Shown: positions 17,324 to 57,203 of the stretch, piece after piece
Position numbering within the stretch: position 1 is the first letter of the stretch
Layout of the letters: every line of letters starts with the position of its first letter
Position numbers and translations under genes: made by a program
Origin: Candidatus Pacearchaeota archaeon
Lineage (GTDB): Archaea > Nanobdellota > Nanobdellia > Pacearchaeales > GW2011-AR1
Assembly: GCA_041649045.1 (NCBI GenBank)
Contig: JBAZNV010000001.1
Span: 19,756 to 83,755 of the forward strand
Direction: 5' to 3'
DNA: 64,000 nt
Notes under the pieces: model-generated
Databases searched by the model: none
The model's input: the letters and a program-made list of their open reading frames with translations, nothing else
What the model was told of the DNA's origin: nothing

Positions 17324-18232
17324 TTATATATTTTTAAAAATTAGAACTATGGATATAAGAATTAATATAACAAAAATAATCAAAACATAGTGAATCCAGC
17401 TCAAATTTTCGAAAAAATTTGAGGTTTGTGCTTCCTTGATTGCAGAATCCGAGTCGTTGCCCAAATTTATTGAAGAGCTTGTGGCTTTATTAGATGTAAA
17501 TATTACAGGGGTTTCATCTTCAATTTCTCTAACTACAGTTCTTTTAGAATCTGAAGTTGATTTTGACGTTTTTTCACTGTCGAAAATCGAATTTCCCAAA
17601 CTGCCATCGGAATTTATTATGAATAGTTTTATTGTGTAAATTTTATTTTCTTTCAAATTTTCTGCTTTGTATGAATTTTCTTCGCTTGACAAATTAACCT
17701 TGTTAATTTCATTGATATAGACGGCTATGCCGGAAAAATTTTCAGATGGGTTTTCCCATTCCCATAAAATCCATGATTTGGATTTGTCTGCAACTTTCAA
17801 GTTTGAGATTGTGAAATCCGCAGTTTCATTTTGTTGTTCGCTATATACATAAAAAGCAATCCCTTCAGGAGTCCAAACATTATTAGCATAAGTTTCAAGA
17901 ATATGATTTTTTTCATTTTCATCAGCTGTATAGAAATGTGAACTTGTCAATGGACTCCAAAACCTATACACCGGCACTGTATTCTCCTGTTGTTCGCTAT
18001 ATACATAAAAAGCAATCCCTTCAGGAGTCCAAACATTATTAGCATAAGTTTCAAGAATATGATTTTTTTCATTTTCATCAGCTGTATAGAAATGTGAACT
18101 TGTCAATGGACTCCAAAACCTATACACCGGCACTGTATTCTCCTGTGCAGAAACAGTCATCGCTCCTAAAACTAAAAAAAGCACCAACGCCAATACTGTT
18201 TTTGTTAACTTGTTTTCCATCTTAATTATCAC
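17324..18232 (-). CDS. secreted surface protein with two identical DUF5648-like (YRFW...HFYT) repeats and C-terminal TM anchor
   Basis: Signal peptide; 52-aa unit VYRFWSPLTSSHFYT...GIAFYVY repeated twice; C-terminal TM. Confidence 0.6.
   Translation of the reverse strand: MIIKMENKLTKTVLALVLFLVLGAMTVSAQENTVPVYRFWSPLTSSHFYTADENEKNHILETYANNVWTPEGIAFYVYSEQQENTVPVYRFWSPLTSSHFYTADENEKNHILETYANNVWTPEGIAFYVYSEQQNETADFTISNLKVADKSKSWILWEWENPSENFSGIAVYINEINKVNLSSEENSYKAENLKENKIYTIKLFIINSDGSLGNSIFDSEKTSKSTSDSKRTVVREIEDETPVIFTSNKATSSSINLGNDSDSAIKEAQTSNFFENLSWIHYVLIIFVILILISIVLIFKNI
17833..18144. repeat. perfect 156-bp tandem duplication (2 copies) inside surface-protein gene
   Basis: 17833..17988 identical to 17989..18144. 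Confidence 0.9.
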
Positions 18233-32025: not shown

Positions 32026-33243
32026 TTATTCCACCAGGTTAATAATTTGCTTTAGAGAGCTGACCACGTCCTTTCTTTCTCTTAAAAAACTCATCAGAGC
32101 TACTTCGGTGCTTTCAATTCTTGATTTGTTTACTTCAACTATTACCTCTCCTTCAAGTCTTCTGACCTCAAGTTGTTTTTCCATCTCTTGTTGCTTTCTA
32201 AGTAACTCTGCCATCGCCGAGCTTATAACATCAAGCTTTGTTTTCAATTCTTTGTTTTCATTCTCGGTTTTTACAAAATTATCTCCGGCAAGTTTTATTG
32301 TCTCATCATCTATCAATCCATTCATGTCAATATATCTATCTGGCATTTTTGATGATGCTGACCAGCCATATCTGTAAGAAATCTGAAATCTGTTAAGATG
32401 GTTCGCGTAATAAGTCGCTGATCCGTGCCTGAAAGTATGAGGTGAAATCATTCTACTAAGAAATTGTTTACCCATTCTGTTTGTATATTTTCTCAGGGTC
32501 CCGTAATTTATCGTACATAAAAAATCCTCTTCTCCAAATTTATTCATTTGCAGATATTCGTCAATTATTTTCGGATACAGCGGAAGATTTATTGTTCTCG
32601 GTTTAGTTTTTGAAATTCTTATTCTGACTTTGTAAACTCCATTTTCTTTCACGATGTCGCTCCTTTTGATGTTATAAAATTCTTCGATTCTTGCTCCACT
32701 GTCAAATAAAACAGCTAAAATAAATCGGTAAATTAATTTAGACGAATTTTCTATCAATCGGTCGTTCTCTTGTTTGCTCAAACTTCTGACTTCCGGCATT
32801 CTTGTACTTGTGTCGATGTATTGGACGAGTTTGGGATAATTCTCTTTGTCTCCGAGAAGATATTTGTAATATTTTCTGATAAACTTTTTTATTGTAGACT
32901 GCGTTTCCCATGTGTAAGGATTCCCTTTGGAAGATTTTACAATTCCTCTTTCAAGATTTAGAATAAATGTGTTCATATCGTCTTCTGTGACCTTATCGAA
33001 CGGTTTCTTTAACCACTCGCGATCCATATTCAAAAGTATACCAAGCATTCGCTGCAGCCTTCCAGGCTTGATTTTTCTCTTCTGTCCTTTAAGAATTGTC
33101 TTTCCGATTTCTGCGTCGTATAAAAACTGTAAAATCAAATTTCTGTTCTCAGGAATTAATAACCTGGTCGACCCTGATCTTAGTTTTTCCAACGATCGAT
33201 AATATTTATCTGGGTTTTGGAGTCTGACTATTTTGTCGTCCAT
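32026..33243 (-). CDS. int: tyrosine-type site-specific recombinase/integrase
   Basis: C-terminal catalytic residues: R...HTFRHGSAT...RYGW...Y; adjacent to tRNA gene. Confidence 0.8.
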   Translation of the reverse strand: MDDKIVRLQNPDKYYRSLEKLRSGSTRLLIPENRNLILQFLYDAEIGKTILKGQKRKIKPGRLQRMLGILLNMDREWLKKPFDKVTEDDMNTFILNLERGIVKSSKGNPYTWETQSTIKKFIRKYYKYLLGDKENYPKLVQYIDTSTRMPEVRSLSKQENDRLIENSSKLIYRFILAVLFDSGARIEEFYNIKRSDIVKENGVYKVRIRISKTKPRTINLPLYPKIIDEYLQMNKFGEEDFLCTINYGTLRKYTNRMGKQFLSRMISPHTFRHGSATYYANHLNRFQISYRYGWSASSKMPDRYIDMNGLIDDETIKLAGDNFVKTENENKELKTKLDVISSAMAELLRKQQEMEKQLEVRRLEGEVIVEVNKSRIESTEVALMSFLRERKDVVSSLKQIINLVE

Positions 33244-33327: not shown

Positions 33328-33343
33328 ATAGCCCCTCCAGGAT
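33328..33343 (+). repeat. att-like direct repeat (proximal copy, overlapping tRNA-Gln 3' end)
   Basis: Identical 16-mer to 19452..19467. Confidence 0.6.
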
Positions 33344-33401
33344 TCGAACCTGGGTCACGGGAGTCAGAGTCCCGTATCCTTGACCGCTAGACTAAAGGGC
33401 T
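33329..33401 (-). tRNA. tRNA-Gln (anticodon CUG)
   Basis: Manual fold: acceptor AGCCCUU/AGGGGCU, anticodon stem CGGGA/UCCCG loop CUCUGAC, T-loop GGUUCGAAUCC. Confidence 0.75.
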
Positions 33402-33556
33402 ATAGAAAATTCAGAAAAAGAAAGTTTAAAAGTTTAGTGGACCTTTAAATTCATTTGTAAAATTTTAGAGAAACTTGCTTGCGTGAATGGCAATGATTGT
33501 GAAAATTAGCGCATTCTTTTAAAAAACTTTATAATGTATGTTGGTTTTAATATTTC

Positions 33557-37608: not shown

Positions 37609-38388
37609 ATGGCGAAAATAAAATTTGGGCCAGGAGGATTGGGTTCAATAAAAGATGCGATTGTTAATTTGTATGAATATCATCGGCTGGGAATTAATGC
37701 GTGCGAGGTTGAGTTCGTATACCGAGTTTATATAAATAAAGAACAGGCAATTGAAATTGGGAAGACGGCGAAGAATTTAGGGATAGGTCTTTCGGTGCAC
37801 TGTCCGTATTATATAAATTTGAATTCTGCTGATTTTGAAAAAATAGAAGCATCAAAAAAAAGAATTTTAAATTGCTGTGAAATTGGGCACTATCTCGGAG
37901 CAAAAAAAATAGTTTTTCATTCGGGATTTTATGGCAACAGGGATTATGAAGAAACTTACGCAAATATCCACAACGCAATTGTTGAAATAAAAAAAGGAAT
38001 AGAAAAAAATAAATGGGACGTCGAACTTTGTCCCGAAATAATGGGCAAGGCGAATGTCTTTGGCTCAATTGAAGATATACAGAGACTTGTGGTTGAGACG
38101 GGTTGTAGTTTTTGCATAGATTTTGCTCATATTCTTGCAAGGTATGGAGAAAATAAATTTAATGAGGTCGCTAAAGCATTTCCACAGGAAAGTTGGCATT
38201 GCCATTTCTCGGGGATTGTATACGGAGAGAAGGGAGAGAAGAATCATATCAAGACGAGCGAAAAAGAATGGGAGGAGTTGTTGAATTTTTTGAAAACTTT
38301 AGATAAAGATGTTGTGATAATTAATGAAAGTCCGACGCCGGTGGAAGATAGCGTGATGGGCAAGAAAGTTTTTGGGGAATTAGATTAA
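37609..38388 (+). CDS. nfo: endonuclease IV (AP endonuclease family 2)
   Basis: HCPYYINLNS, ELCPEIMGK, CIDFAH motifs. Confidence 0.7.
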   Translation: MAKIKFGPGGLGSIKDAIVNLYEYHRLGINACEVEFVYRVYINKEQAIEIGKTAKNLGIGLSVHCPYYINLNSADFEKIEASKKRILNCCEIGHYLGAKKIVFHSGFYGNRDYEETYANIHNAIVEIKKGIEKNKWDVELCPEIMGKANVFGSIEDIQRLVVETGCSFCIDFAHILARYGENKFNEVAKAFPQESWHCHFSGIVYGEKGEKNHIKTSEKEWEELLNFLKTLDKDVVIINESPTPVEDSVMGKKVFGELD

Positions 38389-38604
38389 TTTTTCGAACTC
38401 CTCTTTTGATAAATTAATTTGTTTTAATATTTCAAGCAAAAGTCCTTTTCCTAAGTCTTCATTATTGTGAACTGGCACAACTGTTCTTCTGCCGTCGGGA
38501 TGCTTGAATCTGATATGACTTCCTTTGCCATAAATTTTTTCAAAACCAATTTTTTCTAATACTTTGCACATCTCTTTTCCAGAAACTTTCTTAAGTTTTG
38601 TCAT
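38380..38604 (-). CDS. hicA: HicA toxin (mRNA interferase)
   Basis: KVLEKIGFEKIYGKGSHIRFKHPDGRRTVVPVH...ILKQ. Confidence 0.75.
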   Translation of the reverse strand: MTKLKKVSGKEMCKVLEKIGFEKIYGKGSHIRFKHPDGRRTVVPVHNNEDLGKGLLLEILKQINLSKEEFEKLI

Positions 38605-38605
38605 T

Positions 38606-38836
38606 TTAATTTTCTCGAGGTTTTTCAACTTGAACTCTTTGAATCCCAACAAATTTCATTGGTTTTACATCTTCTTGATCCGCTTCGAGACAAGTCTCAA
38701 TTGCCTCTTTGATTCTTTCTGTGACTTCTTGCAAAGTTTTTCCTTGAGTGTAGCATCCTTCGATTTCGGGAACTTTCGCTACAAAAATTCCATCTTCGTC
38801 TTCCTGGATTATTACATCAAATGTTTCTTTTCCCAT
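38606..38836 (-). CDS. hicB: HicB antitoxin (N-terminal domain only, 76 aa)
   Basis: FDVIIQEDEDGIFVAKVPEIEGCYTQGKTLQEVTERIKEAIETCLE. Confidence 0.7.
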   Translation of the reverse strand: MGKETFDVIIQEDEDGIFVAKVPEIEGCYTQGKTLQEVTERIKEAIETCLEADQEDVKPMKFVGIQRVQVEKPREN

Positions 38837-39408: not shown

Positions 39409-40605
39409 ATGAAAAGAAATTTGCTTTTTGTTCCTTTCGTCGCAGTTTTGACTCTTTTTGTTGTTGGTGCTTCGGCGGCTGAACTTGCGAATAGTGACTT
39501 TGAAACAACATTCAATGGTGTTGAATTATCTGATGATGTTCTCTTCGCGGGGATGGTCGGAGATTCGGTGCCAGTGAGAGTAACTTTCAATGCACTTGAA
39601 GATTCGAGTAATGTTCGTGTAAGGATCAGAATGGAAGGCATAAGGGAAGACATATCTGCTTCGACTGAAAGATTTGATATTATCAGCGGAGTAACGTATA
39701 CAAAGTCTTTAACTTTAGAACTTCCAAGTGATTTGGCGGACACTGATAAGGAGTATACTCTTTATGTTGAAATAGTTTCGGCTGACGGCAGAACTGAAAG
39801 AATGTACTCGATTGTTATGCAAAGAGAATCGTACGAAGTTGAAATTTTGGCTGTTGACTATAACTCAAGAGTTGCGGGCAACGAAGTTGTTCCTGTATCT
39901 GTTGTTGTTAAGAATTCCGGCTTTAATCGATTAGATGATGTTTTCGTTTTGGTTTCTATTCCTGAACTTGGGATAATGTCAAGAGGTTACCTTGGTGACT
40001 TAATTCCAGTAGAAGATTATAGTGACGATTACGAAGATGAAGAAGATTCTGTATCGAAAACTGTTTATTTCAGAGCTCCAGAAAATGTCAAGAGCGGCAT
40101 TTACGAAATGGAAATAATAGTTTACAATGACGATTTCGAAACATCTGTCAAGAGATTGATAAGTGTTGGAGAAGATGGCGTCGTAAATGTTATTGCAGCC
40201 GTAAAGAACAAGGATTTAAAAGCAGGAGAAACTGTAACTTACGATTTGATTATCGTGAATTCTGCAGACAATGTTAGGGTTTTCAACTTGGAAGAAATTT
40301 CAGGAAATGATTTGACTGTTGTTGTTCCTTCGGTAATTACCGTTGGTCCAAAATCCAGTGAAACCGTTTCAATTAGCGTGACAGCTGATGAGAATGCTGA
40401 AGTTGGGACACGAACGTTTTCGGTAGAAGTTGATGGCGAATCTGTAGTCTTCGGTGCTAATGTTGTTGAAGATGGTTATTCGACATCCGTAGTCGCCTTG
40501 ACTGTGATACTTGTTATCGTGTTCATTGTTCTTCTTGCTGTGCTAATAATTCTTCTTACGAGAAAGGAAAAGCCAATGGAAGAAGTAGAAACGAGCTACT
40601 ATTAA
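39409..40605 (+). CDS. cell-surface protein (signal peptide, Ig-like beta-rich ectodomain, C-terminal TM anchor)
   Basis: MKRNLLFVPFVAVLTLFVVGASAA signal; C-terminal VVALTVILVIVFIVLLAVLIILL. Confidence 0.55.
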   Translation: MKRNLLFVPFVAVLTLFVVGASAAELANSDFETTFNGVELSDDVLFAGMVGDSVPVRVTFNALEDSSNVRVRIRMEGIREDISASTERFDIISGVTYTKSLTLELPSDLADTDKEYTLYVEIVSADGRTERMYSIVMQRESYEVEILAVDYNSRVAGNEVVPVSVVVKNSGFNRLDDVFVLVSIPELGIMSRGYLGDLIPVEDYSDDYEDEEDSVSKTVYFRAPENVKSGIYEMEIIVYNDDFETSVKRLISVGEDGVVNVIAAVKNKDLKAGETVTYDLIIVNSADNVRVFNLEEISGNDLTVVVPSVITVGPKSSETVSISVTADENAEVGTRTFSVEVDGESVVFGANVVEDGYSTSVVALTVILVIVFIVLLAVLIILLTRKEKPMEEVETSYY

Positions 40606-40647
40606 TTTTTTTAATTCCTCTTTAATTTTTGAGGATTTTTTGTTTTA

Positions 40648-40840
40648 GCAAGCTTTTTAGAAAAAAGTTTGCTGGGTAAAAACTTAGGGTGCGAAATCTT
40701 CGATTTCGTATTTAATGCGAGAAAAATTATCTTCACGGTTTCGTGTGAAGACGCGTCGGTCATTGCATTTGCCACGACACTCGCCGCTCAAAATTTTATC
40801 TCGCTCGTATTTCGCTCTTCGTGCGCGAGCAGACGCGTAA
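40648..40840 (+). repeat. GC-rich structured intergenic element, copy A (3-member family)
   Basis: Shares 5' about 75 nt with copy C and about 150 nt (about 85% identity) with copy B; conserved core cgtatttaatgcgagaaaaatt followed by hairpins. Confidence 0.6.
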
Positions 40841-40843
40841 AAT

Positions 40844-41302
40844 ATGGAGAAAATGGAAAGACAAAGAATAATACAACCAGAGAAAGAAATTATAATTTAT
40901 CATATTGGAAAATACGAAGATGGGGGACGGGGGCATTTTGGACGAGAATTTGGAGTGTGGTCGCAAATATATCCGTGTCATCTAGAACCTGATAATAAGG
41001 GAGGGTTGATTTATGTTTTGGGAAAGGGCAGTAGGGTGGGCAATTTTTCGGGCAATTTTTTTAGACAAGAATTAATGGGGGCTCTTAGGGCTTTATACAA
41101 TGAACCTTCCCTATCAGTATTAAGAATGTATAGGGTCTGGGATGCAGACTCTTATATTTCTGTAGAAGAAGAGGATAAACTAATTTCGCCAGGGAAAGAA
41201 TTTGTTGATGAGTTATTGGAAACTTCTGCAGTTAGTTTAAAATTAAGAACTGAACCAGTAGGTCAATTAATTAAGGAGGGGTTGATAGAGTTAGCTAGAT
41301 AA
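40844..41302 (+). CDS. hypothetical protein (152 aa)
   Basis: ORF immediately downstream of element A; first of a five-gene co-oriented block. Confidence 0.4.
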   Translation: MEKMERQRIIQPEKEIIIYHIGKYEDGGRGHFGREFGVWSQIYPCHLEPDNKGGLIYVLGKGSRVGNFSGNFFRQELMGALRALYNEPSLSVLRMYRVWDADSYISVEEEDKLISPGKEFVDELLETSAVSLKLRTEPVGQLIKEGLIELAR

Positions 41303-41341
41303 GATGGGAGAAAATTTAGAAAGAGAAATTGGGAGAGAAAA

Positions 41342-41599
41342 ATGAAGAGAAAAATATCTGGAAATTTTAGAAGAGAAGAAACTGGGGCAGATATTGTTGC
41401 CGATGTAGTTTTTAGAGTGTTATTGCCCGCAGCGTTTTTAATTGGAACTAACTATTTTACTAGATGTATGGTCGAAAGAGAAATGAGAAGTTTTTATGAA
41501 CCAATTATAAATTCATCTACTCCAGAAATCGTTCATTCCGACGATAGACTTTATGAACAAATAAGGAATTGGTATAAAAGAGAAAATGGTAGAAAATAA
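41342..41599 (+). CDS. hypothetical protein (85 aa)
   Basis: ORF, part of co-oriented block. Confidence 0.35.
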   Translation: MKRKISGNFRREETGADIVADVVFRVLLPAAFLIGTNYFTRCMVEREMRSFYEPIINSSTPEIVHSDDRLYEQIRNWYKRENGRK

Positions 41600-41605
41600 A
41601 AGAAA

Positions 41606-41932
41606 ATGATACATAGATTATATAGAAATGGAATAAGGAAAATAACTATTATAGATGGCAATGATTTTGTTGGAAGAATAGAAGGAAATATTGAAACAAA
41701 AACGGTGCAAAGGGGAATTTATCATGGAAGAAGGGAATCTGATACCTTATATTATTTAAATACAAAAGACGAGAAGTTGAGAATTTCATTTTGTGGTCGT
41801 GGAAGAATAAGGGATATTAGATCATTTTTTCAGTCCTCAATGTCTGAGTATTATTGGGTAATTAATTTAAAGGCTTTGCAAAATTTAAATCCGAATTACA
41901 AAATATCCAGTCATTTACGGCAAATCAAATAA
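41606..41932 (+). CDS. hypothetical protein (108 aa)
   Basis: ORF, part of co-oriented block. Confidence 0.35.
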   Translation: MIHRLYRNGIRKITIIDGNDFVGRIEGNIETKTVQRGIYHGRRESDTLYYLNTKDEKLRISFCGRGRIRDIRSFFQSSMSEYYWVINLKALQNLNPNYKISSHLRQIK

Positions 41933-41937
41933 ATAAA

Positions 41938-42330
41938 ATGAGAAAAGTAATAGACTATCAAATTGGAAGGTTAGAGGGGGATTTGACGAAGAATCACAAA
42001 TTTATAGTGGAAGAAAGAGACTCTGTCGATGGTTTGGTTTTGGTTTATCATTCTCATATTGTTGATAATTTTGGACAACCTCTTCATAAAAAAATTGTAA
42101 AAATATTCAGTATAAAAAAAGATAGTATATTGGGAGGCGGGTTTGTATTCACTGATGCCTCAATCTTAAATTTTTGTGACTATTCGACAGATTTTGGTGC
42201 TGTTCCGCAATCGGTTCTTGAAAAGTTTGGAGGATTACTTTTACCAAGATATCAAAACGTAGGAATTGAGAGAATTAAAATTGATGTCGATGAAAGAGAT
42301 TTAATGGATTGGTGGAAGGAGATTGTGTGA
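41938..42330 (+). CDS. hypothetical protein (130 aa)
   Basis: ORF, part of co-oriented block. Confidence 0.35.
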   Translation: MRKVIDYQIGRLEGDLTKNHKFIVEERDSVDGLVLVYHSHIVDNFGQPLHKKIVKIFSIKKDSILGGGFVFTDASILNFCDYSTDFGAVPQSVLEKFGGLLLPRYQNVGIERIKIDVDERDLMDWWKEIV

Positions 42331-42596
42331 AGATGGAAGATTGGTGGGGATATCGAGTTATGGAAATGGAAAAAGCAGTTAGAGATATGGGGGTTAGTTC
42401 TGCATTTTTGGCGCATTATTCTCAATTAAGAGGATTAGTCAAGGGAGACGTCGAGAATCTAGAATTAAAAATAGCTATTCAAAGATACAGGGCTTTTAGA
42501 AGTTTATATGAAGTTAAGAATAGTGGAAGGTTGGCAATGTTTGATGGGCAAGTTTCTGCGTTGACTAAAGGATTGAGTAGAATTTGTTTAATATAA
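42309..42596 (+). CDS. hypothetical protein (95 aa)
   Basis: ORF overlapping previous by 22 nt. Confidence 0.35.
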   Translation: MVEGDCVKMEDWWGYRVMEMEKAVRDMGVSSAFLAHYSQLRGLVKGDVENLELKIAIQRYRAFRSLYEVKNSGRLAMFDGQVSALTKGLSRICLI

Positions 42597-42771
42597 AATG
42601 AATGAGCATTGGTGACCCGATTTTCGCAATCAAATTTTTGTTATCAAAGGTGACCCGATTTTTCGCGATGATCAAGTTTTCGCGTGTTTCCCGCCCGCCC
42701 CGAATTAATCGCTTCGCTCCAAAGTTGTAATATGGGGAGTTAAAATACTAACAGTAAAAGAAAAACTTAAG
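42597..42771. repeat. GC-rich segment between convergent genes with tandem ggtgacccgatttt(t)cgc repeats
   Basis: ggtgacccgattttcgc at 42612 and ggtgacccgatttttcgcg at 42651; similar gatgacccgagtcattttg at 16640. Confidence 0.45.
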
Positions 42772-45636
42772 TTATACCTTCAAACTTACAACTTTAGAAA
42801 TATTTTCTTGCATTGAGACTCCGTACAAGCTTGTGGCTTCGGAGATTAGTGTATCGTTATGTGTGATAATTATATACTGACCTGTCGTTTTATATTTTTT
42901 TATAAGGGCTGCGAGAAGTTCTGAGTTATGTTTGTCGAGGGCTGCGTCAATCTCATCAAAGATATAAAATGAATATGGGCTATATTCCTGAATTGCGAAA
43001 ATAAGAGATAGGGCGACGAGAGTTTTTTCTCCTCCTGACAAACTTGTAACGTCGAAATATTTTCCCCTGGAAACTTTTACTAAAATATTTAATCCTCCTT
43101 GAAATGGTTCTTTTTTATTTTCTATCTCAAGAAATACTTCTCCTTTTTTTGAGAGTTGTTTGAAATTCCTGGTGAAAAACTCGTTTACTGAGTTTAAGGT
43201 GCCAAAGAAAGCCTTTTTTTTCTTTTTATCAATTTCTGAAATAATATTTTGAATTTTTGATTTTTCGTTTTCGATTGTTTCGACTTTTTTCTTTATCGAT
43301 TCACATTGCTCCTGAACTTGTTCAAAAATTTCCAGGGCTCTCATATTTACGCTTCCGAGCTGCGAAATTTTGAATTGTGCTTTTTGAAGCCGATCTTTTA
43401 TTTCTTCTATTGGGAACTGAAAAATTTCGACATTTCCGAATTCGGATATTTCGGATTTCAATGATTCCATTTGGGCTGAAAACTGAGCCTTTTGTATTTT
43501 GTTGGAATTAGTCTTGTCTTCGAGGTTTTTAATTGTGTGTGACAATCCAATAATATCAGTTTCAATCGCTTTTTGTTTATCTTGGATTTCGTTTTTTTGA
43601 GAAAAGAATTTCTGGAATTTTTCGTAAAGTTGTTGTTCTTCGTTTTCTTTTTTTGCAAGAAGTTTTTCTTTTTCAGAAATTAGTATAGAAATTTTTTTTA
43701 TTTCAACGAGAGAGTCCTCGATGTCCCTTATGGTTTTTTTCATGTCAACGGTCAACCTGTTTATTTCGCGTTCCTTGACGGTGACTTCTGTATCAATATT
43801 AATATCCTGAAATGAAATTTCCTGAAGTTTAAGTCTTGCTTCGTCATACTTTTCTTCAACGTCTTTAAGTTTTTCAAAATCATTCTTCAAATTTTGTAGT
43901 TTTTCTTTTTGTCTGGAAATTTCATTCCTATTTTCTTCAATTTCTTTACGAATTTTTTCAATCTGATTTTTTTTGTCATCAATATTTTTTATTTTTATTT
44001 TATCAATGTTTAATTCATTAATTTTGAAATTTAATTTTGAAATTTCTTCTTTTAGTGATGAAATTTTATTTTTATCCTCTTCTTTTGTTTCAAGATTTTT
44101 TGCGAGTTCTTTTTTTGCATTCAAAATTTTTTCATTGGCTTCGAAGGAAATTTTATGCTTGTGATCTTGCGTGACTTCTTGTTTGCATATTGGGCAGTTT
44201 TGAAGTTTTATGACATCTTCCCTTAATTTTTCTTCTCGTTCAATTTCTTTTTCAAGGATAGCATTATTTTTTTCTTTTTCCAAAATTTCTTTTTCTGACT
44301 CAGCAAAAGATTGTTCAATTTTTTTCATTCTTTGGAGGGCTTCTTCTTTTATCTTTTCAATTTGGTTAATATCTTTTTCATATTTTATTTCATTGGCGAG
44401 GGATTCAATATTGTTTTTTAATAACTTTATTTCCTGTTCATTTTCTATGATTGATTTTTCTTTTTCTTCTTTTTTATTTTCGAAGGTTGAAATTTCCGAT
44501 TTTAACATGTAAAATTTTCTTCTTTGTTGTTCCAGAATATCAAATTTTTCTTGCAAATTCTTTGAAAGTTCTTTTTGTTTTTTTATTTCAGGAGAATTTT
44601 TTTGTATTTGGGAAATTTCTTCATTTAATTTGCTGATTTTTTCTTTAATTTGGGAAATTTTTTCATTTCCCTGAATTTTTCTATTCTCGTAGTTTTCAAG
44701 CCTTACCGTGAGTCCAGCCAAATCCGCCTTTAAATCTGAAAGTTCTTTGTGAAGATTTTCTTGTTCATTACTTGTTGAAGATTGTATTTGTTTATTTATT
44801 ACATATATTTTATTTTGCAATTCTTCGACGGCAAGATTCTTCATATTAATTTCTTTTTTTATTTTATCGATTTCTTTTTCATAATTTTCTATTATTTTAT
44901 TTATTCCCCAGATTTCTTTTTCTTTTTCTTTTATATTCTTTGAAATTATTGTAGCTTTGCATTTTTTTATTGTTTCTTCGAGTTTTTGATGAGAAATCGC
45001 TTCTTGTTTTTCTTTCTCCAAGTTTTTTAGGAAAGCGTTTCTTTCTCTTAAAATTGCCGAGACTTCTTTCAGGCTTTCTTCGGCTTTTTCAAGTTCTCGC
45101 AAACTTTTATGTTTTCTTGTTTCATATATGGAAATTCCGGCGACTTCTTCTATTATTTGTCTTCTTTCTTCGGACGTTGATTTCACGAGAGATTGTATTT
45201 CTCCCTGCAAAACAATGTTGAACCCGTTCGGGTCAATTCCTCCTTGCGCCAAAAGCTCGATTAATTCCTGTCTTGTTTTAGTTTCGTTGTTTATTTTGTA
45301 TATAGATAGCCCATTTTTTCTTACAATTCTTTTTATTGTAAGTTCGTTAGAATTTATAGAGAACGTCTTGTCGGTGTTATCGAAAATGATTTCAACAAAA
45401 GCTTCGTTTGAGCCTTTGTAATTTTTGTTTCCCGAGAAAAGGAGATTTGCGGCTTTTGCGGCCCTTATGGATTTAATAGAAAGCCTTCCCAGGACGAAGC
45501 ATAATGCGTCTGTGATATTAGATTTTCCTGAGCCATTTGGTCCGACAATAATATTCATTGAATTTTCGAGAGGGATTTCGGTTTTCCTTGCAAAACTTTT
45601 GAAACCTTGCATCACAATCTTTTTTATGTAAGTCAT
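42772..45636 (-). CDS. SMC-type ATPase (954 aa) with Rad50-like CxxC zinc hook at coiled-coil midpoint instead of a hinge
   Basis: SMC-type head motifs FKSF, IVGPNGSGKSNITDALCFVLG, LSGGEKTLVALSLIFAIQ, FYIFDEIDAALD; CPIC at residue 481 of 954. Confidence 0.7.
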   Translation of the reverse strand: MTYIKKIVMQGFKSFARKTEIPLENSMNIIVGPNGSGKSNITDALCFVLGRLSIKSIRAAKAANLLFSGNKNYKGSNEAFVEIIFDNTDKTFSINSNELTIKRIVRKNGLSIYKINNETKTRQELIELLAQGGIDPNGFNIVLQGEIQSLVKSTSEERRQIIEEVAGISIYETRKHKSLRELEKAEESLKEVSAILRERNAFLKNLEKEKQEAISHQKLEETIKKCKATIISKNIKEKEKEIWGINKIIENYEKEIDKIKKEINMKNLAVEELQNKIYVINKQIQSSTSNEQENLHKELSDLKADLAGLTVRLENYENRKIQGNEKISQIKEKISKLNEEISQIQKNSPEIKKQKELSKNLQEKFDILEQQRRKFYMLKSEISTFENKKEEKEKSIIENEQEIKLLKNNIESLANEIKYEKDINQIEKIKEEALQRMKKIEQSFAESEKEILEKEKNNAILEKEIEREEKLREDVIKLQNCPICKQEVTQDHKHKISFEANEKILNAKKELAKNLETKEEDKNKISSLKEEISKLNFKINELNIDKIKIKNIDDKKNQIEKIRKEIEENRNEISRQKEKLQNLKNDFEKLKDVEEKYDEARLKLQEISFQDINIDTEVTVKEREINRLTVDMKKTIRDIEDSLVEIKKISILISEKEKLLAKKENEEQQLYEKFQKFFSQKNEIQDKQKAIETDIIGLSHTIKNLEDKTNSNKIQKAQFSAQMESLKSEISEFGNVEIFQFPIEEIKDRLQKAQFKISQLGSVNMRALEIFEQVQEQCESIKKKVETIENEKSKIQNIISEIDKKKKKAFFGTLNSVNEFFTRNFKQLSKKGEVFLEIENKKEPFQGGLNILVKVSRGKYFDVTSLSGGEKTLVALSLIFAIQEYSPYSFYIFDEIDAALDKHNSELLAALIKKYKTTGQYIIITHNDTLISEATSLYGVSMQENISKVVSLKV

Positions 45637-45730: not shown

Positions 45731-46654
45731 GTGGGAAATGAAATAATACTGGTTGACATAGGGTCTTCGACTGTTAAAATGTATTTGGCTAACGAAAATC
45801 AAATTTTGCTTAAAAAAATAGAAAATATTTTCTTTAATGTTGAATTTTCGCCCGATGGATTAAGTCCAGATAACGAAAAAAAGTTAGTTGAATTTCTATT
45901 GAATTTAAAGAAGGATTACCCGTCGGTCCCAATTTTTATTTATGCAACTGCGGTTTTTAGAAAATTGAATGTAGAAGCCAGAAAAAAATTATCAGATAAA
46001 ATTTATGAGAAAACAGAACTAATTTTTAATTTGATTTCGCACGAGATGGAAAATTTTTATTTAGAACAGGCGCTGCTTGACAATTTTGACTTGAAAGAAC
46101 CGGTGCTTTTAATTAATGTCGGCGGAGGATCTACCGAATTTGTTGTCGTAAATAATAAAAAAAGTATTGAGAGAAAAAATATTGATATTGGCGTTGGCGC
46201 GTTGTTAAAAAAATTTCCTGAAGTTAATAACGAACTTTCGTCTATTGATAAAAAAATTATTATTGATTTTATAGAGCCTGAACTTCCCGATATAGAAAAC
46301 AAACCATCTAAAGCATTTTATACTGGAGGGGAACTAAGTTATATGCAACTTGCTAATTATCCTCTGAAGAAAAATATTTTTTTTAATGATTCTGCTCATC
46401 CGAGCGTTATAAGTTTTGAGGACTTTTCAATAAAGAATGATGAAGTTTTTTCTAAAATTAAACTTTCTGAACTTGAAAAATTAATGCCAGATTCTCCTAA
46501 GTGGATGCATGGAGCCAGAGTTTGTTCTGCCTTTGTCGAGGCAATCTGCAAGAAGTATAACATTGGGCATATAATTCCATCTGATTCAAATTTAATAGAC
46601 GGAATTTTTGCGCATCAATTTAAAGATAAGGCCTTGAGATTGTCAGGGGAATAG
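45731..46654 (+). CDS. Ppx/GppA-family phosphatase (ASKHA fold)
   Basis: ILVDIGSSTVKMYL and INVGGGSTEFVV phosphate-binding motifs. Confidence 0.55.
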   Translation: MGNEIILVDIGSSTVKMYLANENQILLKKIENIFFNVEFSPDGLSPDNEKKLVEFLLNLKKDYPSVPIFIYATAVFRKLNVEARKKLSDKIYEKTELIFNLISHEMENFYLEQALLDNFDLKEPVLLINVGGGSTEFVVVNNKKSIERKNIDIGVGALLKKFPEVNNELSSIDKKIIIDFIEPELPDIENKPSKAFYTGGELSYMQLANYPLKKNIFFNDSAHPSVISFEDFSIKNDEVFSKIKLSELEKLMPDSPKWMHGARVCSAFVEAICKKYNIGHIIPSDSNLIDGIFAHQFKDKALRLSGE

Positions 46655-47470: not shown

Positions 47471-47989
47471 TTATTTACGCTGTTTGACCCAAAAAAATCC
47501 AACAACTAGTCCGATAATAATTAAGCTTCCACCGACAATATTTCTGGCTGAAGTTGTTAAAGTTCCGATTGCGTTACCGGTAAAAGAAAAGGAAAGAAAA
47601 AAAAGACCAGAAAGAAAAGTTAGAATGGAAATAACTGAAGTAATATCTCTTAAAAAATTAAAACTTTTATTTCTTTGCGTTATGGGTAATCTATAATTTA
47701 AATCTCTTGACATTCGTGCACATCTTGTAGCATCGCTTCTGCTACCCTTTTCTTTATAAGTTTCGGCAAGCTGTTCAAAACATTCAGAGATTTCACGAAT
47801 CTCACCCGGACTTTTTTCAGTAGAATCTCTATATATTTCGGCCATAGAGCTAAAACCTCCATCTTTACTAAGAATTGTTTTACTTTCGGCTTCAGGATGT
47901 TCAAAATCTTCTCCCGAAAGAAGTTCTATCCAAGTTTTTTTATCTTGCCCTTCTTTTTCTTTTCCTCCAGGGTATTCTTTTTTACTCAT
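47471..47989 (-). CDS. hypothetical protein with C-terminal TM helices
   Basis: ORF; flanked by direct repeats. Confidence 0.4.
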   Translation of the reverse strand: MSKKEYPGGKEKEGQDKKTWIELLSGEDFEHPEAESKTILSKDGGFSSMAEIYRDSTEKSPGEIREISECFEQLAETYKEKGSRSDATRCARMSRDLNYRLPITQRNKSFNFLRDITSVISILTFLSGLFFLSFSFTGNAIGTLTTSARNIVGGSLIIIGLVVGFFWVKQRK

Positions 47990-48053
47990 TTATTTTTTAA
48001 TTTAGATTTCTTAATAAACATTTCCAAATAGCCATCGCGGAAAATTTATAGTC

Positions 48054-48084
48054 ATAGCGGGGGCAAGTATTAAAGGAAAAGTAG
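48054..48084 (+). repeat. direct repeat copy 2 (atagcgggggcaagtattaaaggaaaagtag)
   Basis: See copy 1. Confidence 0.5.
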
Positions 48085-48235
48085 CGAACGAGGCTATAAG
48101 AAAAGAAAAAATTATTCATTATAAATCAAATGCAATTAAATTGTATTTTAATAACCTTTTTTCTTATTAAATATTTTATCTTTTTTCTTTAATAAGAAAA
48201 GAAATATTTATATAGCAACGTAAGTAATCTTTATT

Positions 48236-49390
48236 ATGGAGATTTCTGAGTTTAAGGGCTCTTTTGGAAAACTTGTTGAAAAAGAAGACAAGGAACATGG
48301 GAAATATACTTCTTTTATCCCAAGCAAATTACCTCCAAAGTTTGAATACACTCCTGCATTAGTTTTAGCTCTTTCAAAAGCAGATAGTACTTTAAGTAAA
48401 CTTTCTGGAGCCGGCCTCCTTCTCCCAAATCCAGAATTATTAATCATTCCATATTTAAAAAAAGAAGCACTATCAAGTTCAAGGATAGAAGGGACTCAAA
48501 TTTCTCTTTCAGAATATTTTTTATCTGAGGCGAAAGGAATAACAAAGGAGGATATTGAGGCTACGGAAGTAGGGAATTATATTCAAGCAATTAGACACAC
48601 ATTGAAAGAAATTGAAACGAAACCAATTACCTCGGATTTAATTAAAGAAATGCATAAAATTTTACTTAAAGGAGTAAGGGGAGACGAGCTTCTTCCCGGA
48701 AATTTTAGACCTGTACAAAATTGGATAGGTCCAAAAAATACTAAAATCAAAGATGCAACCTTTGTACCTCCGCCAAAAGAAGAAGTGGAAAGATTAATTC
48801 AAGAATTAATAGACTATCTTAATACCAATGATGAAGTCCCATTATTAATAAAATGTGCTTTAATGCACTATCAATTTGAAACAATTCATCCATTTTGTGA
48901 CGGAAACGGAAGAATTGGAAGAGCACTAATTACTCTTTATCTTTGTAAAAAAAATAAAATTTCAAAACCTCTACTTTACGCAAGTGATTATTTCGAGAAA
49001 CATCGAAGAGATTATTATGATATACTTTTGACTGCAAATAAAACCGGAAAGTTTGAGATTTGGATTAATTTTTTTTTAGAGGCTATTAAAGTTCAATCAG
49101 AAGATGCCTTAGAAAGAACAATTAAAATTCAAAAACTTCGAGAAGATTATCAGAAAAAAATAAAAAATCATAAGCAAGCAGTTAATCTTCTTAATGTAGT
49201 TGATGCTTTATTCCTGAATCCTTTTGCTCAAATTAATCAAATATCTTCAACGCTGGATGTTACTTATCCAACAGCAAAAAAAGCTGTTGATAATTTAATT
49301 AAGCTTGGAATATTGAAGTCAGTTAATAATGAAACTGAGAGAAATAAGCTTTTTGTTGCTCACGAAATACTTGAAATAATTACATTGTAG
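48236..49390 (+). CDS. fic: Fic-family protein (AMPylator-like) with inhibitory S-x-x-I-E-G helix and C-terminal winged helix
   Basis: HPFCDGNGRIGR Fic motif; SSRIEGT inhibitory motif upstream. Confidence 0.8.
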   Translation: MEISEFKGSFGKLVEKEDKEHGKYTSFIPSKLPPKFEYTPALVLALSKADSTLSKLSGAGLLLPNPELLIIPYLKKEALSSSRIEGTQISLSEYFLSEAKGITKEDIEATEVGNYIQAIRHTLKEIETKPITSDLIKEMHKILLKGVRGDELLPGNFRPVQNWIGPKNTKIKDATFVPPPKEEVERLIQELIDYLNTNDEVPLLIKCALMHYQFETIHPFCDGNGRIGRALITLYLCKKNKISKPLLYASDYFEKHRRDYYDILLTANKTGKFEIWINFFLEAIKVQSEDALERTIKIQKLREDYQKKIKNHKQAVNLLNVVDALFLNPFAQINQISSTLDVTYPTAKKAVDNLIKLGILKSVNNETERNKLFVAHEILEIITL

Positions 49391-49436
49391 GAATAGGGCA
49401 GTAAGAGGCTATAAAAGTAATAAAAAATAAAATAAA

Positions 49437-49817
49437 TTATTGTTTTGGCAGCATATAACTAACCTTTCCACGGTCTTCAATCCGCGTGAGACCAAAATTA
49501 TCAAAATCCTTTTCCACTCTTTGAGCTAAATCAAAATAATGTTTCTCATTACTTTTGCCTTTGTATATTTTATGTTTTACAATAGTCCAGCGTCGAGAAC
49601 GCGCTCCATCATACTCTCTAAAATGGTCTTCTAAGTATTCCATCGCTTCATGAGGATTTAATGTTTCATCTTTAGAATAGGTTTCTGCATCGTACTCTAT
49701 CCTTACTTTTACCGAATCTTCTAACCCCGAAAGAGTCTCTAAAAGATTTTTCAATTTTATTGATTCATCTTTTACTTTCTTTCTTCCTGCAAGCGCATTT
49801 GAAATTGTTCTTATCAT
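49437..49817 (-). CDS. hypothetical protein (126 aa), convergent with fic; weak HEPN-like Rx5H (RRWTIVKH)
   Basis: ORF only. Confidence 0.35.
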   Translation of the reverse strand: MIRTISNALAGRKKVKDESIKLKNLLETLSGLEDSVKVRIEYDAETYSKDETLNPHEAMEYLEDHFREYDGARSRRWTIVKHKIYKGKSNEKHYFDLAQRVEKDFDNFGLTRIEDRGKVSYMLPKQ

Positions 49818-52367: not shown

Positions 52368-52393
52368 GGTTTTTTTGCTGCATTTTCTTCAGA

Positions 52394-52540
52394 TAGCGAA
52401 ATCTGGCGATTTCGTATTTAATGCAAGACAAAATTATCTTCACCTCTGGTGAAGACGCGACTGTCATTGCGTTCGCAACGACACTGTCGCTCAAAATTTT
52501 GTCTTGCGGGGAATTTATTGCGCGCTTCGGGCGCGCCTAT
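52394..52540 (+). repeat. GC-rich structured intergenic element, copy B
   Basis: About 85% identical to copy A over about 150 nt; contains GCGCGC-UUCGG-GCGCGC hairpin. Confidence 0.6.
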
Positions 52541-52723
52541 CGTTTGAGTGTGTCAAGATGCTTAAGAAGAAAAATTTAAAAATAATTTTAAATTATTTTT
52601 TATTGAAAAAGAGTTCTGATAACTTAAGATGAAAAAAGTTCAACAAGGAATTTATGTGGCAGGTGGCGAATTAAAGATTGCTGTTTTACTTAACTTTAAA
52701 ATCTCTTTTTATTGTTTATAATT

Positions 52724-56591: not shown

Positions 56592-56924
56592 ATGGAAAAA
56601 GATTTGGGCAGAATAAAGAAAAATCCGGAGACCGAGATCTTGGTCCGAATTGATGATTTTGGGGGGAAGCCTGGCTTGACGATTCGAGAATTTGTTACGT
56701 CTGAAAAATATACAGGGTTTACAAAATCTGGGACGAGAATTCCGGTTGAAAGTTTTGAAGCTTTCAAAAAAATGATTAATTCGGTTAAGCCGGGGGATTT
56801 TGGAAACGCGGGTGAAGTGAAACAGGAAAAACTTCCGGTTAAAAAAATTCTTCAAAAAAAGGAAGATTTAGATTTGGACGAGGAATTTGATGATTCCGGG
56901 ATAGATGACGAAGGACTAATTTAA
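56592..56924 (+). CDS. PC4/Sub1-like ssDNA-binding transcriptional cofactor with acidic tail
   Basis: ILVRIDDFGGKPGLTIREFVTSEKYTGFTKSGTRIPVESFEAF resembles PC4 C-terminal domain. Confidence 0.5.
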   Translation: MEKDLGRIKKNPETEILVRIDDFGGKPGLTIREFVTSEKYTGFTKSGTRIPVESFEAFKKMINSVKPGDFGNAGEVKQEKLPVKKILQKKEDLDLDEEFDDSGIDDEGLI

Positions 56925-56927
56925 GCT

Positions 56928-57112
56928 AAACTTTTAGAAAAAGTTTGGCTGGATTAAAACTTATGTTGCGGAACTTCGTTCCGTATTTACTGCGAGAAAA
57001 ATTTTCTCGCGAATTGAGTTCGCGAGCCGATTCCCCCAAACTTTGTTTGGGTCCGGAATCGGACAAATTTTTACTCGCGGGAAATTTGTTGCGCGCTTTA
57101 GACTCGCGCAGT
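56928..57112 (+). repeat. GC-rich structured intergenic element, copy C
   Basis: Shares 5' about 75 nt with copy A (cttttagaaaaagtttggctgg...cgtatttactgcgagaaaaatt), then different hairpins. Confidence 0.55.
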
Positions 57113-57203
57113 GTTTGAAACGTGGTAGATATTTGAAAAAGATAATTATTTTTGTTTTATTGATTTTTGTTTATTCCGCCATCTTTAAATATTCTCTCTT
57201 CTC

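Follow-up and report, generated by a model that had tools for sequence, protein, structure and literature searches.

A Probable Lineage-Specific Accessory Operon Encoding a PHPT1/Janus-Like Protein in a Variable Interval of a Pacearchaeota Genome

Introduction

In this work, we describe a block of five small, co-oriented open reading frames (ORFs) located at positions 40844-42596 of a 64-kb stretch of DNA (the window, to which all the position numbers given below refer) from a Candidatus Pacearchaeota metagenome-assembled genome (MAG). The interpretation that we prefer, and to which we assign a probability of roughly 60%, is that the block represents a lineage-specific accessory operon housed in a permissive, variable interval between two convergent core genes, i.e., those coding for a 398-aa surface protein (S398) and for SMC.

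Sites of this kind have been described as genomic islets or plasticity hotspots, with which the S398-SMC interval shares fixed syntenic flanks, a size-variable and unrelated content, an enrichment in ORFans and the occasional presence of an insertion sequence (IS) element. It differs from them in lying between two convergent 3' ends, without any tRNA, integrase or repeat signature, as well as in its cargo, which is represented here by five very small genes, and in its host, whose genome is a reduced DPANN one.

As for the proteins encoded by the block, the term of comparison for the product of the fourth gene (ORF4) is the human 14-kDa phosphohistidine phosphatase PHPT1 (PF05005; PDB 2nmm, 2hw4, and 2ai6), whose orthologues have been described in animals and whose residues His53, Ser94, Lys21, and Arg78 have been implicated in catalysis and substrate anchoring (PMC4817053). 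The two proteins are alike in size (~125-145 aa), whereas their identity is about 13%, ORF4 has no equivalent of Arg78 and possesses in addition a conserved P90 and a C-terminal W126, and the members of its family for which a context or a name is available are archaeal (DPANN where named). In bacteria, a distinct phosphohistidine phosphatase, SixA, is reported to act on NPr and Ndk; the role that we propose for ORF4, that is, the dephosphorylation of phosphohistidine intermediates of enzymes such as NDK, would be the same. Since ORF4 has the PHPT1 fold and SixA belongs to the unrelated histidine-phosphatase (PGAM-like) superfamily, this likeness is one of analogous function only.

Lastly, a repeat located upstream of the block (element A) recalls the small non-coding RNAs encoded by GC-rich islands of AT-rich archaeal genomes, in that it is GC-richer, intergenic, and endowed with helices supported by covariation; unlike them, it has no Rfam family, it is present in multiple copies, and one of these is clearly inserted.

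Results

The S398-SMC Interval as a Variable Accessory-Gene Site

The organization of the region was compared with that of 79 related loci (one genome per species) from Pacearchaeota, Woesearchaeota, and Nanoarchaeota MAGs, with an SMC identity of 40-76%. The gene order primase-like gene, 170-aa gene, endonuclease IV, DUF7557, S398, convergent SMC, and RNase HII is retained in most of these loci, and S398, which gives a weak match with the Ig-like Pfam family FixG_C, was detected by tblastn in 57 of the 79, mostly adjoining SMC. None of the five ORFs of the block gave a tblastn match in the same loci, nor were members of the ORF4 family retrieved from them with profile hidden Markov models (HMMs). 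Across the 53 syntenic loci the S398-SMC interval spans from 41 to 7984 nt (no more than 100 nt in 14 loci, 101-1000 nt in 22, 1-3 kb in 12, and more than 3 kb in 5), the smallest intervals corresponding to the bare terminator shared by the relatives. The contents found in different genomes are unrelated to one another and mostly not linked to defence; they include Fic, ABC transporter, IS1595 transposase (together with a DRG GTPase), M3/M32 peptidase, GNAT, MFS, HEAT-repeat, PCMT, polyprenyl synthase, and Ig-like surface proteins, as well as runs of small unannotated ORFs. The conservation of the flanks, the absence of the block from all 79 loci, and the unrelated contents of the interval therefore identify it as a variable accessory-gene site; the comparison of synteny among relatives, which the first-pass annotation had indicated as informative, thus revealed no conserved core arrangement embedding the block. 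The features of the site are as follows:

39409-40605, + strand: S398, left flank; 398-aa surface protein with a signal peptide, Ig-like repeats, and a C-terminal membrane anchor
40606-40650, + strand: terminator-like hairpin CCTCTTTAATTTTTGAGG followed by a T-run, 3' of the S398 stop; 20% GC
40651-40843, + strand: element A, a GC-richer, structured-RNA-like repeat between the S398 terminator and ORF1
40844-41302, + strand: ORF1, 152 aa; acidic, soluble
41342-41599, + strand: ORF2, 85 aa; basic, with one hydrophobic segment resembling a membrane helix
41606-41932, + strand: ORF3, 108 aa; very basic (isoelectric point 10.1)
41938-42330, + strand: ORF4, 130 aa; PHPT1/Janus-like, putative phosphohistidine or phosphoramidate phosphatase
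42333-42596, + strand: ORF5, 87 aa from the ATG, basic; 95 aa if translated from a TTG at 42309
42597-42771, strand not assigned: spacer of 175 nt, 40% GC, found in this genome only
42772-45636, - strand: SMC, right flank, convergent with the block; Pfam SMC_N match on the called gene

Some of the relatives harbor peculiar cargoes at this site. Two of them carry their own runs of five co-oriented ORFs (L029, 13131-15253, 83-198 aa; L031, 4988-6599, 86-136 aa), for which no homology was detected either to the five ORFs of the window or to each other. In L006 (15265-18874) and L012 (4953-8404 and 8711-12206), the interval hosts cysteine-rich secreted or membrane proteins of about 1016-1035 aa, with no Pfam match, each preceded by a small partner gene of 134-170 aa; L012 has two copies of this pair.

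The Five ORFs Are Genuine Protein-Coding Genes

The five ORFs fill 97.5% of the block and are separated by 39, 6, 5, and about 2 nt. When the interval was subjected to 1000 dinucleotide-preserving shuffles, ORFs of at least 80 aa numbered 0.07 per shuffle on average and 2 at most, versus the 5 observed; the tightly packed, co-oriented array reported by the first-pass annotation is thus confirmed, coordinates included, and lies far beyond what is expected by chance. Moreover, using a codon table built on 33 long genes of the window, each ORF scored positively when read in its own frame, with values of 0.06-0.24 vs. 0.28 +/- 0.07 for the reference genes, and negatively in the other five frames, and this is also true for ORF3, which has the lowest value (0.06), and for ORF5 (0.14). 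Hence, the ORFs are coding, and they use host-like codons. A 295-kb ENA contig and another, independent assembly show the same gene order, and two of the proteins have been recorded for a Candidatus Pacearchaeota MAG as the hypothetical proteins WC548_00355 and WC548_00370.

Concerning their composition, the enrichment in G previously attributed to these genes turned out to be marginal: their G content ranges from 0.20 to 0.28 vs. 0.20 +/- 0.04 in the 33 reference genes, while the overall GC content of the block (0.33) is that of the genome (0.34 in the window).

As regards the borders of the single genes, the ATG at 42333, which lies 3 nt from the ORF4 stop, is a more likely start for ORF5 than the TTG at 42309, judging from the sequence. 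Gene callers place the start of ORF1 at 40853, yielding a protein of 149 aa; the start at 40844 (MEKM...) is supported by the MEKKM beginning of its homologue. ORF1, ORF2, and ORF3 lie in one reading frame, with a single TAA stop between each and the next. We discarded the idea that they represent one gene, either broken by these stops or read through them, because the homologues of ORF1 and ORF2 are separate, complete genes ending at the same points, and because TAA is the main stop codon of the host.

None of the five ORF products gave a significant match of its own in Pfam, PHROG, PADLOC, or NCBIfam, and sequence searches of PDB with ORF1, ORF3, and ORF5 gave nothing meaningful. None of the five proteins matched housekeeping proteins, in agreement with the expectation of the first-pass annotation. 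Structure prediction, also suggested there, was rewarding for ORF4 (see below) but not for ORF1, whose AlphaFold2 (AF2) model, built on a two-sequence alignment, had a predicted local distance difference test score (pLDDT) of 37 and was unusable. ORF2 possesses a hydrophobic segment at about residues 18-36 (Kyte-Doolittle maximum over 19 residues, 1.97) and might be a small membrane-anchored protein; ORF1, ORF3, and ORF5 would represent fast-evolving small proteins. With gaps of 2-39 nt and four of the five products lacking an assignable function, the block fits well the earlier description of a small uncharacterised operon.

ORF4 Is a Superfamily-Level Relative of PHPT1

The statement that none of the five proteins shows a recognisable motif fails for ORF4. 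In an alignment of the 51 members of its family, G67, G68, and S83 are invariant (51/51), while H50 and G66 are conserved in 49 members, P90 and W126 in 48, and K21 in 41. The Pfam family PF05005 (Janus/Ocnus) matched 12 of the 51 members (best E 1.2e-4); the profile of the ORF4 family retrieved the sequences of the human PHPT1 structures with E 0.06, and its comparison with PHPT1 by hhalign gave E 1.2e-4, pairing H50 with His53 (a correspondence also returned by hmmsearch), GGG66-68 with G75-77, and S83 with Ser94. The equivalents of the catalytic His53 and of the phosphate-binding Ser94 are thus kept in ORF4. In addition, K21 of its HKFIV motif resembles that of the FK21YVLI stretch of PHPT1, a region falling outside the significant sequence alignment. 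The AF2 model of ORF4 reached a pLDDT of 97.1 and a predicted template modelling score of 0.90, and the protein has the PHPT1 fold. Taken together, the PF05005 matches in its relatives, the hhalign pairing, and the kept residues indicate that ORF4 is a superfamily-level relative of PHPT1 rather than a member of the Pfam-defined family, and probably a phosphatase acting on N-linked phosphate.

If so, ORF4 might hydrolyse phosphohistidine, phospholysine, or phosphoramidate on a protein or on a small molecule. NDK and the ADP-forming acyl-CoA synthetase work through phosphohistidine intermediates; both are encoded on the same contig and may be regarded as candidate substrates.

Where members of the ORF4 family carry a name, it is "hypothetical protein", from Pacearchaeota or Woesearchaeota, and no Pfam domain has been precomputed for them; two distant members, P0035 and P0044, lie in ordinary archaeal chromosomal contexts, their neighbors being Zip and a DRG GTPase or HTH_10 and GatD. 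The ORF4 model found no match among viral structures (BFVD).

Homologues of the Block Are Arranged in Mosaic Cassettes

An exhaustive HMMER search over 1.84 billion representative proteins retrieved about 50 homologous representatives for ORF4 and just one homologue each for ORF1 (P0007, 43% identity, E 3e-17; a two-sequence profile search added none) and ORF2 (P0041, E 2.6e-4; 45% identity over 64 aa and E 6e-15 in a pairwise BLASTP), while ORF3 and ORF5 matched only themselves.

The ORF1 homologue P0007 is located at the S398-SMC locus of L082, where the conserved terminator that follows S398 precedes it and a Pyr_excise-like gene follows it. In L083, DUF7557 and S398 are followed by an ORF4 homologue (61% identity in the HMMER search, 58-59% by alignment/BLASTP), a 573-aa protein, and a convergent SMC (74.5% identical). 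The cassette of L085/L086 consists of S398 (80%), a 94-aa protein, a Pyr_excise protein (T4 endonuclease V-like; 32.8 bits vs. a cutoff of 23), an ORF4 homologue (51%), and a convergent SMC, the latter 90% identical over the 125-residue C-terminal fragment present on the contig. The S398 stop and the terminator-like hairpin (CCTCTTTAAATTTTTTGAGG plus T-run) are kept in the window, L082, L083, and L085. Thus, homologues of ORF1 or ORF4 occupy the S398-SMC locus in three other genomes, each time with different partners, and in this analysis no other genome was found to carry more than one of the five genes; the cassette is, accordingly, mosaic rather than fixed as a unit.

The ORF2 homologue P0041 stands at the head of a different run of six small ORFs (L125, 262-2286). 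Three ORFs of this run, of 89, 96, and 83 aa, have an INP(N/K)Y motif in common and look paralogous, and its last gene resembles, by eye, an M14-type peptidase. On the basis of an NPxY-like motif, ORF3 was considered as a possible relative of the three small paralogues and rejected (hmmsearch E 1.3).

Element A Is a Structured Repeat Inserted Upstream of ORF1

Element A is about 190 nt long, with a GC content of 43-46% across copies (43% in the one upstream of ORF1) vs. 34% in the window. Three + strand copies are present in the window (40651-40843, or 40686-40848 in a second delimitation; 52391-52564; and 56963-57135 or 56921-57135), all within 16.5 kb, and no copy was found in the 18 kb beyond the window or in 84 related loci (L001-L079 and L082-L086); blastn against the relatives also returned nothing. 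A further copy is carried by the metagenome contig L108/L109 (L108, 3548-3790, - strand). Among the 32 loci yielded by a motif scan of metagenomes, L108 and L109 alone represent true copies; two matches on viral contigs were set aside as chance matches.

The architecture of the element comprises 5' hairpins, a 13-bp stem enclosing two hairpins, and a 3' hairpin. In the consensus structure of four sequences, 90.4% of the cells are paired vs. 31-52% in slid controls, compensatory changes occur in 15 of 42 pairs, and none of 500 shuffles reached the observed values. An upstream hairpin with the loop TTTTTAGAAAAAA is likewise common to the copies A, C, and L108, and the stem of this hairpin covaries as AGCAAGC/GTTTGCT, AGCTAAAC/GTTTGGCT, and CTGCAATC/GTTTGCAG. 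The element is intergenic; its G-U pairs, confined to one strand, and its UUCG-type loops speak for an RNA read from the + strand. It has no Rfam match at gathering thresholds or at E values up to 10. Element A is a structured repeat with covariation support, absent from Rfam.

The relationship between this element and the block is looser than previously proposed. The first-pass annotation regarded the block as launched from element A and bracketed by it on the upstream side; a GC-richer element does lie directly upstream of ORF1, but it is a separate repeat, absent from the homologous position in L082, L083, and L085. The distance from the terminator to the first gene is 15 nt for the ORF1 homologue of L082 vs. 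the ~193 nt occupied by element A in the window, and this junction devoid of the element implies that it was inserted before ORF1 and is not intrinsic to the cassette. Given such an insertion relative to the homologous locus, a mobile repeat may be a better description of element A than a classical RNA gene. In L108, where the next gene is convergent, the element does not act as leader to a co-oriented gene located downstream. In the window no T-run separates it from ORF1, with which it is therefore probably co-transcribed.

The Spacer at the Right Border

The spacer separating ORF5 from SMC had been described as a GC-rich tandem-repeat segment. It is richer in GC than the window, and it contains two exact direct copies of the 14-nt sequence GGTGACCCGATTTT (42611-42624 and 42649-42662), 38 nt apart, but it is not a tandem-repeat segment, and Tandem Repeats Finder reported none in 42597-42771. 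The two copies extend to units of about 30 nt with ~85% identity, and they could represent a pair of protein-binding sites. The spacer has no counterpart 3' of SMC in the relatives (blastn). Two possible roles were considered: that of a structured RNA was not supported, since neither strand folds better than shuffled sequences (z = +1.18), and that of an att-like duplicate of element A was rejected, since the spacer does not resemble element A and the borders of the block share no similarity.

The Surrounding Region

The whole neighborhood is dotted with accessory genes. Between endonuclease IV and DUF7557, at 38380-38836, lies a hicA/hicB toxin-antitoxin pair. As tblastn gave no match to it in any of the 79 related loci, it represents a further small insertion specific to this lineage, at a distance of 2 kb from the block. 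Beyond SMC, the segments 45731-46654 and 47471-49817 harbor a Ppx-GppA gene, a 172-aa ORF, a Fic-domain gene, and a 126-aa ORF, which are mostly absent from the relatives, Ppx-GppA being found in only 2 of the 79. On the other side, a gene of the phage-integrase family (32026-33243, - strand, 405 aa) abuts a tRNA-Gln gene (33328-33402), with an N6/N4 DNA methyltransferase further upstream, and this region may be an integrated element. Lastly, a perfect 156-nt tandem duplication (17832-18143, two copies 100% identical) falls within a 302-aa ORF on the - strand (17324-18232); it could correspond to an in-frame 52-aa repeat or to an assembly artefact.

Discussion

The data reported in this work are best accounted for, in our opinion, by a lineage-specific accessory operon sitting in the permissive interval between S398 and SMC. 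According to this idea, the five genes would be transcribed together, starting either by read-through from S398 or from an AT-rich box in the S398 terminator region, and element A might act as a 5' leader or be processed into a small RNA. As for the force that might have led to the accumulation of cargo at this site, it is possible that insertions between two convergent 3' ends are tolerated because they disrupt no promoter.

Several points weigh against this interpretation or soften parts of it. The operon and its promoter are inferred, and a function can be assigned to only one of the five proteins. ORF3 and ORF5 have codon scores (0.06 and 0.14, respectively) about 2-3 standard deviations under the reference mean. 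As the relatives sampled are species representatives with SMC proteins at most 76% identical, the gain of the block is not datable. As to ORF4, the protein itself does not match PF05005, and the members of its family that do, when re-scanned individually, score 13-17 bits vs. a gathering cutoff of 23; furthermore, the position of Arg78 is occupied by F69 and varies across the family. These sub-cutoff scores and the missing Arg78 equivalent make the activity and the substrate of ORF4 uncertain.

A different explanation is that a mobile element, for instance a small provirus, a plasmid, or a site-specific-recombination cassette, became integrated and that the block is its remnant or its cargo. 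This agrees with a presence that varies at a fixed site, with a mosaic content rich in small ORFans, with the occurrence in homologous cassettes of Pyr_excise, whose T4 endonuclease V-like product is common in viruses, with the IS1595 transposase found in the interval of one relative, and with the unique 175-nt spacer carrying two direct repeats at the right border. However, the block neither contains nor adjoins an integrase, transposase, or replication gene, the nearest integrase being the one at 32026-33243, 7 kb away and separated from it by conserved genes. No repeat or att-like sequence is common to the two borders, GC content (0.33 vs. 0.34) and codon usage are host-like, tblastn of the block proteins found no match in phage or plasmid records, the best PHROG match is weak (E 0.011), and no viral structure resembles ORF4, whose distant relatives P0035 and P0044 stand among ordinary chromosomal genes of archaea. 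We therefore consider this origin unlikely. The miniature mobile insert previously hypothesized shares its fate: the presence/absence pattern that it implied was found, with none of the ORFs in the 79 loci, whereas an integrase or transposase, border repeats, and a foreign composition were not.

Still less probable, in our view, is that the five genes constitute one module built around a phosphohistidine phosphatase and devoted to signalling, stress, or anti-virus functions, in which ORF1, ORF2, ORF3, and ORF5 would be its sensor, membrane, or effector partners. The tight packing of the genes (gaps of 2-39 nt), the recurrence of ORF1 and ORF4 homologues at the same locus elsewhere, and the apparent membrane anchoring of ORF2 speak for it. 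Nevertheless, two of the five genes were never together in any other genome retrieved here, the ORF4 homologues stand alone and in varied contexts, ORF3 and ORF5 have no relatives among the 1.84 billion representatives, and the only PADLOC match is the weak and non-significant one of ORF3 (E 0.021).

A similarly doubtful, and more ambitious, proposal combines two statements, namely, that the PHPT1-like protein and its four orphan neighbors form a phosphohistidine-regulating module of DPANN archaea and that element A belongs to a new class of mobile structured RNAs supplying a leader or promoter to any gene in front of which they are inserted. If this were true, the module could tune the activity of NDK or acyl-CoA synthetase during the host-dependent lifestyle. 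As a weaker corollary, there might be an unrecognised archaeal branch of the animal PHPT1/Janus fold.

The first-pass annotation also envisaged a defence or toxin cassette, and the small size of the proteins, the variable site, and the hicAB and Fic genes located nearby in the window could be read in this sense. We regard a toxin-antitoxin or other defence function as very improbable, as neither Pfam nor NCBIfam returned a toxin or antitoxin, the best PADLOC match of the block (ORF3, 11.9 bits) is not significant, nor is the best PHROG one, the sole assignable gene codes for a protein with a phosphatase fold, and the cargo of the site in the relatives is mostly unrelated to defence. Overall, there is no evidence that the block is a defence system, a toxin, or a mobile element. 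Lastly, the idea that the ORFs, all five or only some of them, are spurious and belong to a non-coding or decaying sequence, to which the missing homologues and low codon scores of ORF3 and ORF5 and the shared frame of ORF1, ORF2, and ORF3 with its single TAA stops might lend some credit, can be set aside with little hesitation, since 1000 shuffles never gave more than two ORFs of at least 80 aa, all five score positively in their own frame only, and ORF1 and ORF2 have homologues that are separate, complete genes with the same end points.

Returning to the accessory operon, its kind is a known one, since lineage-specific clusters of small ORFs are common in such genomes, and the block itself would be an ordinary example, found so far only in this lineage; the useful results concern the annotation of ORF4, the variable site, and the structure of element A. 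What is new is the recognition of ORF4 as a PHPT1-like protein, which gives a likely biochemical role to it and to at least 50 unannotated proteins (archaeal where a context or a name is available) and makes histidine dephosphorylation in DPANN archaea testable. The S398-SMC interval, in turn, represents a precise variable site that can be used to study gene gain and loss in reduced DPANN genomes.

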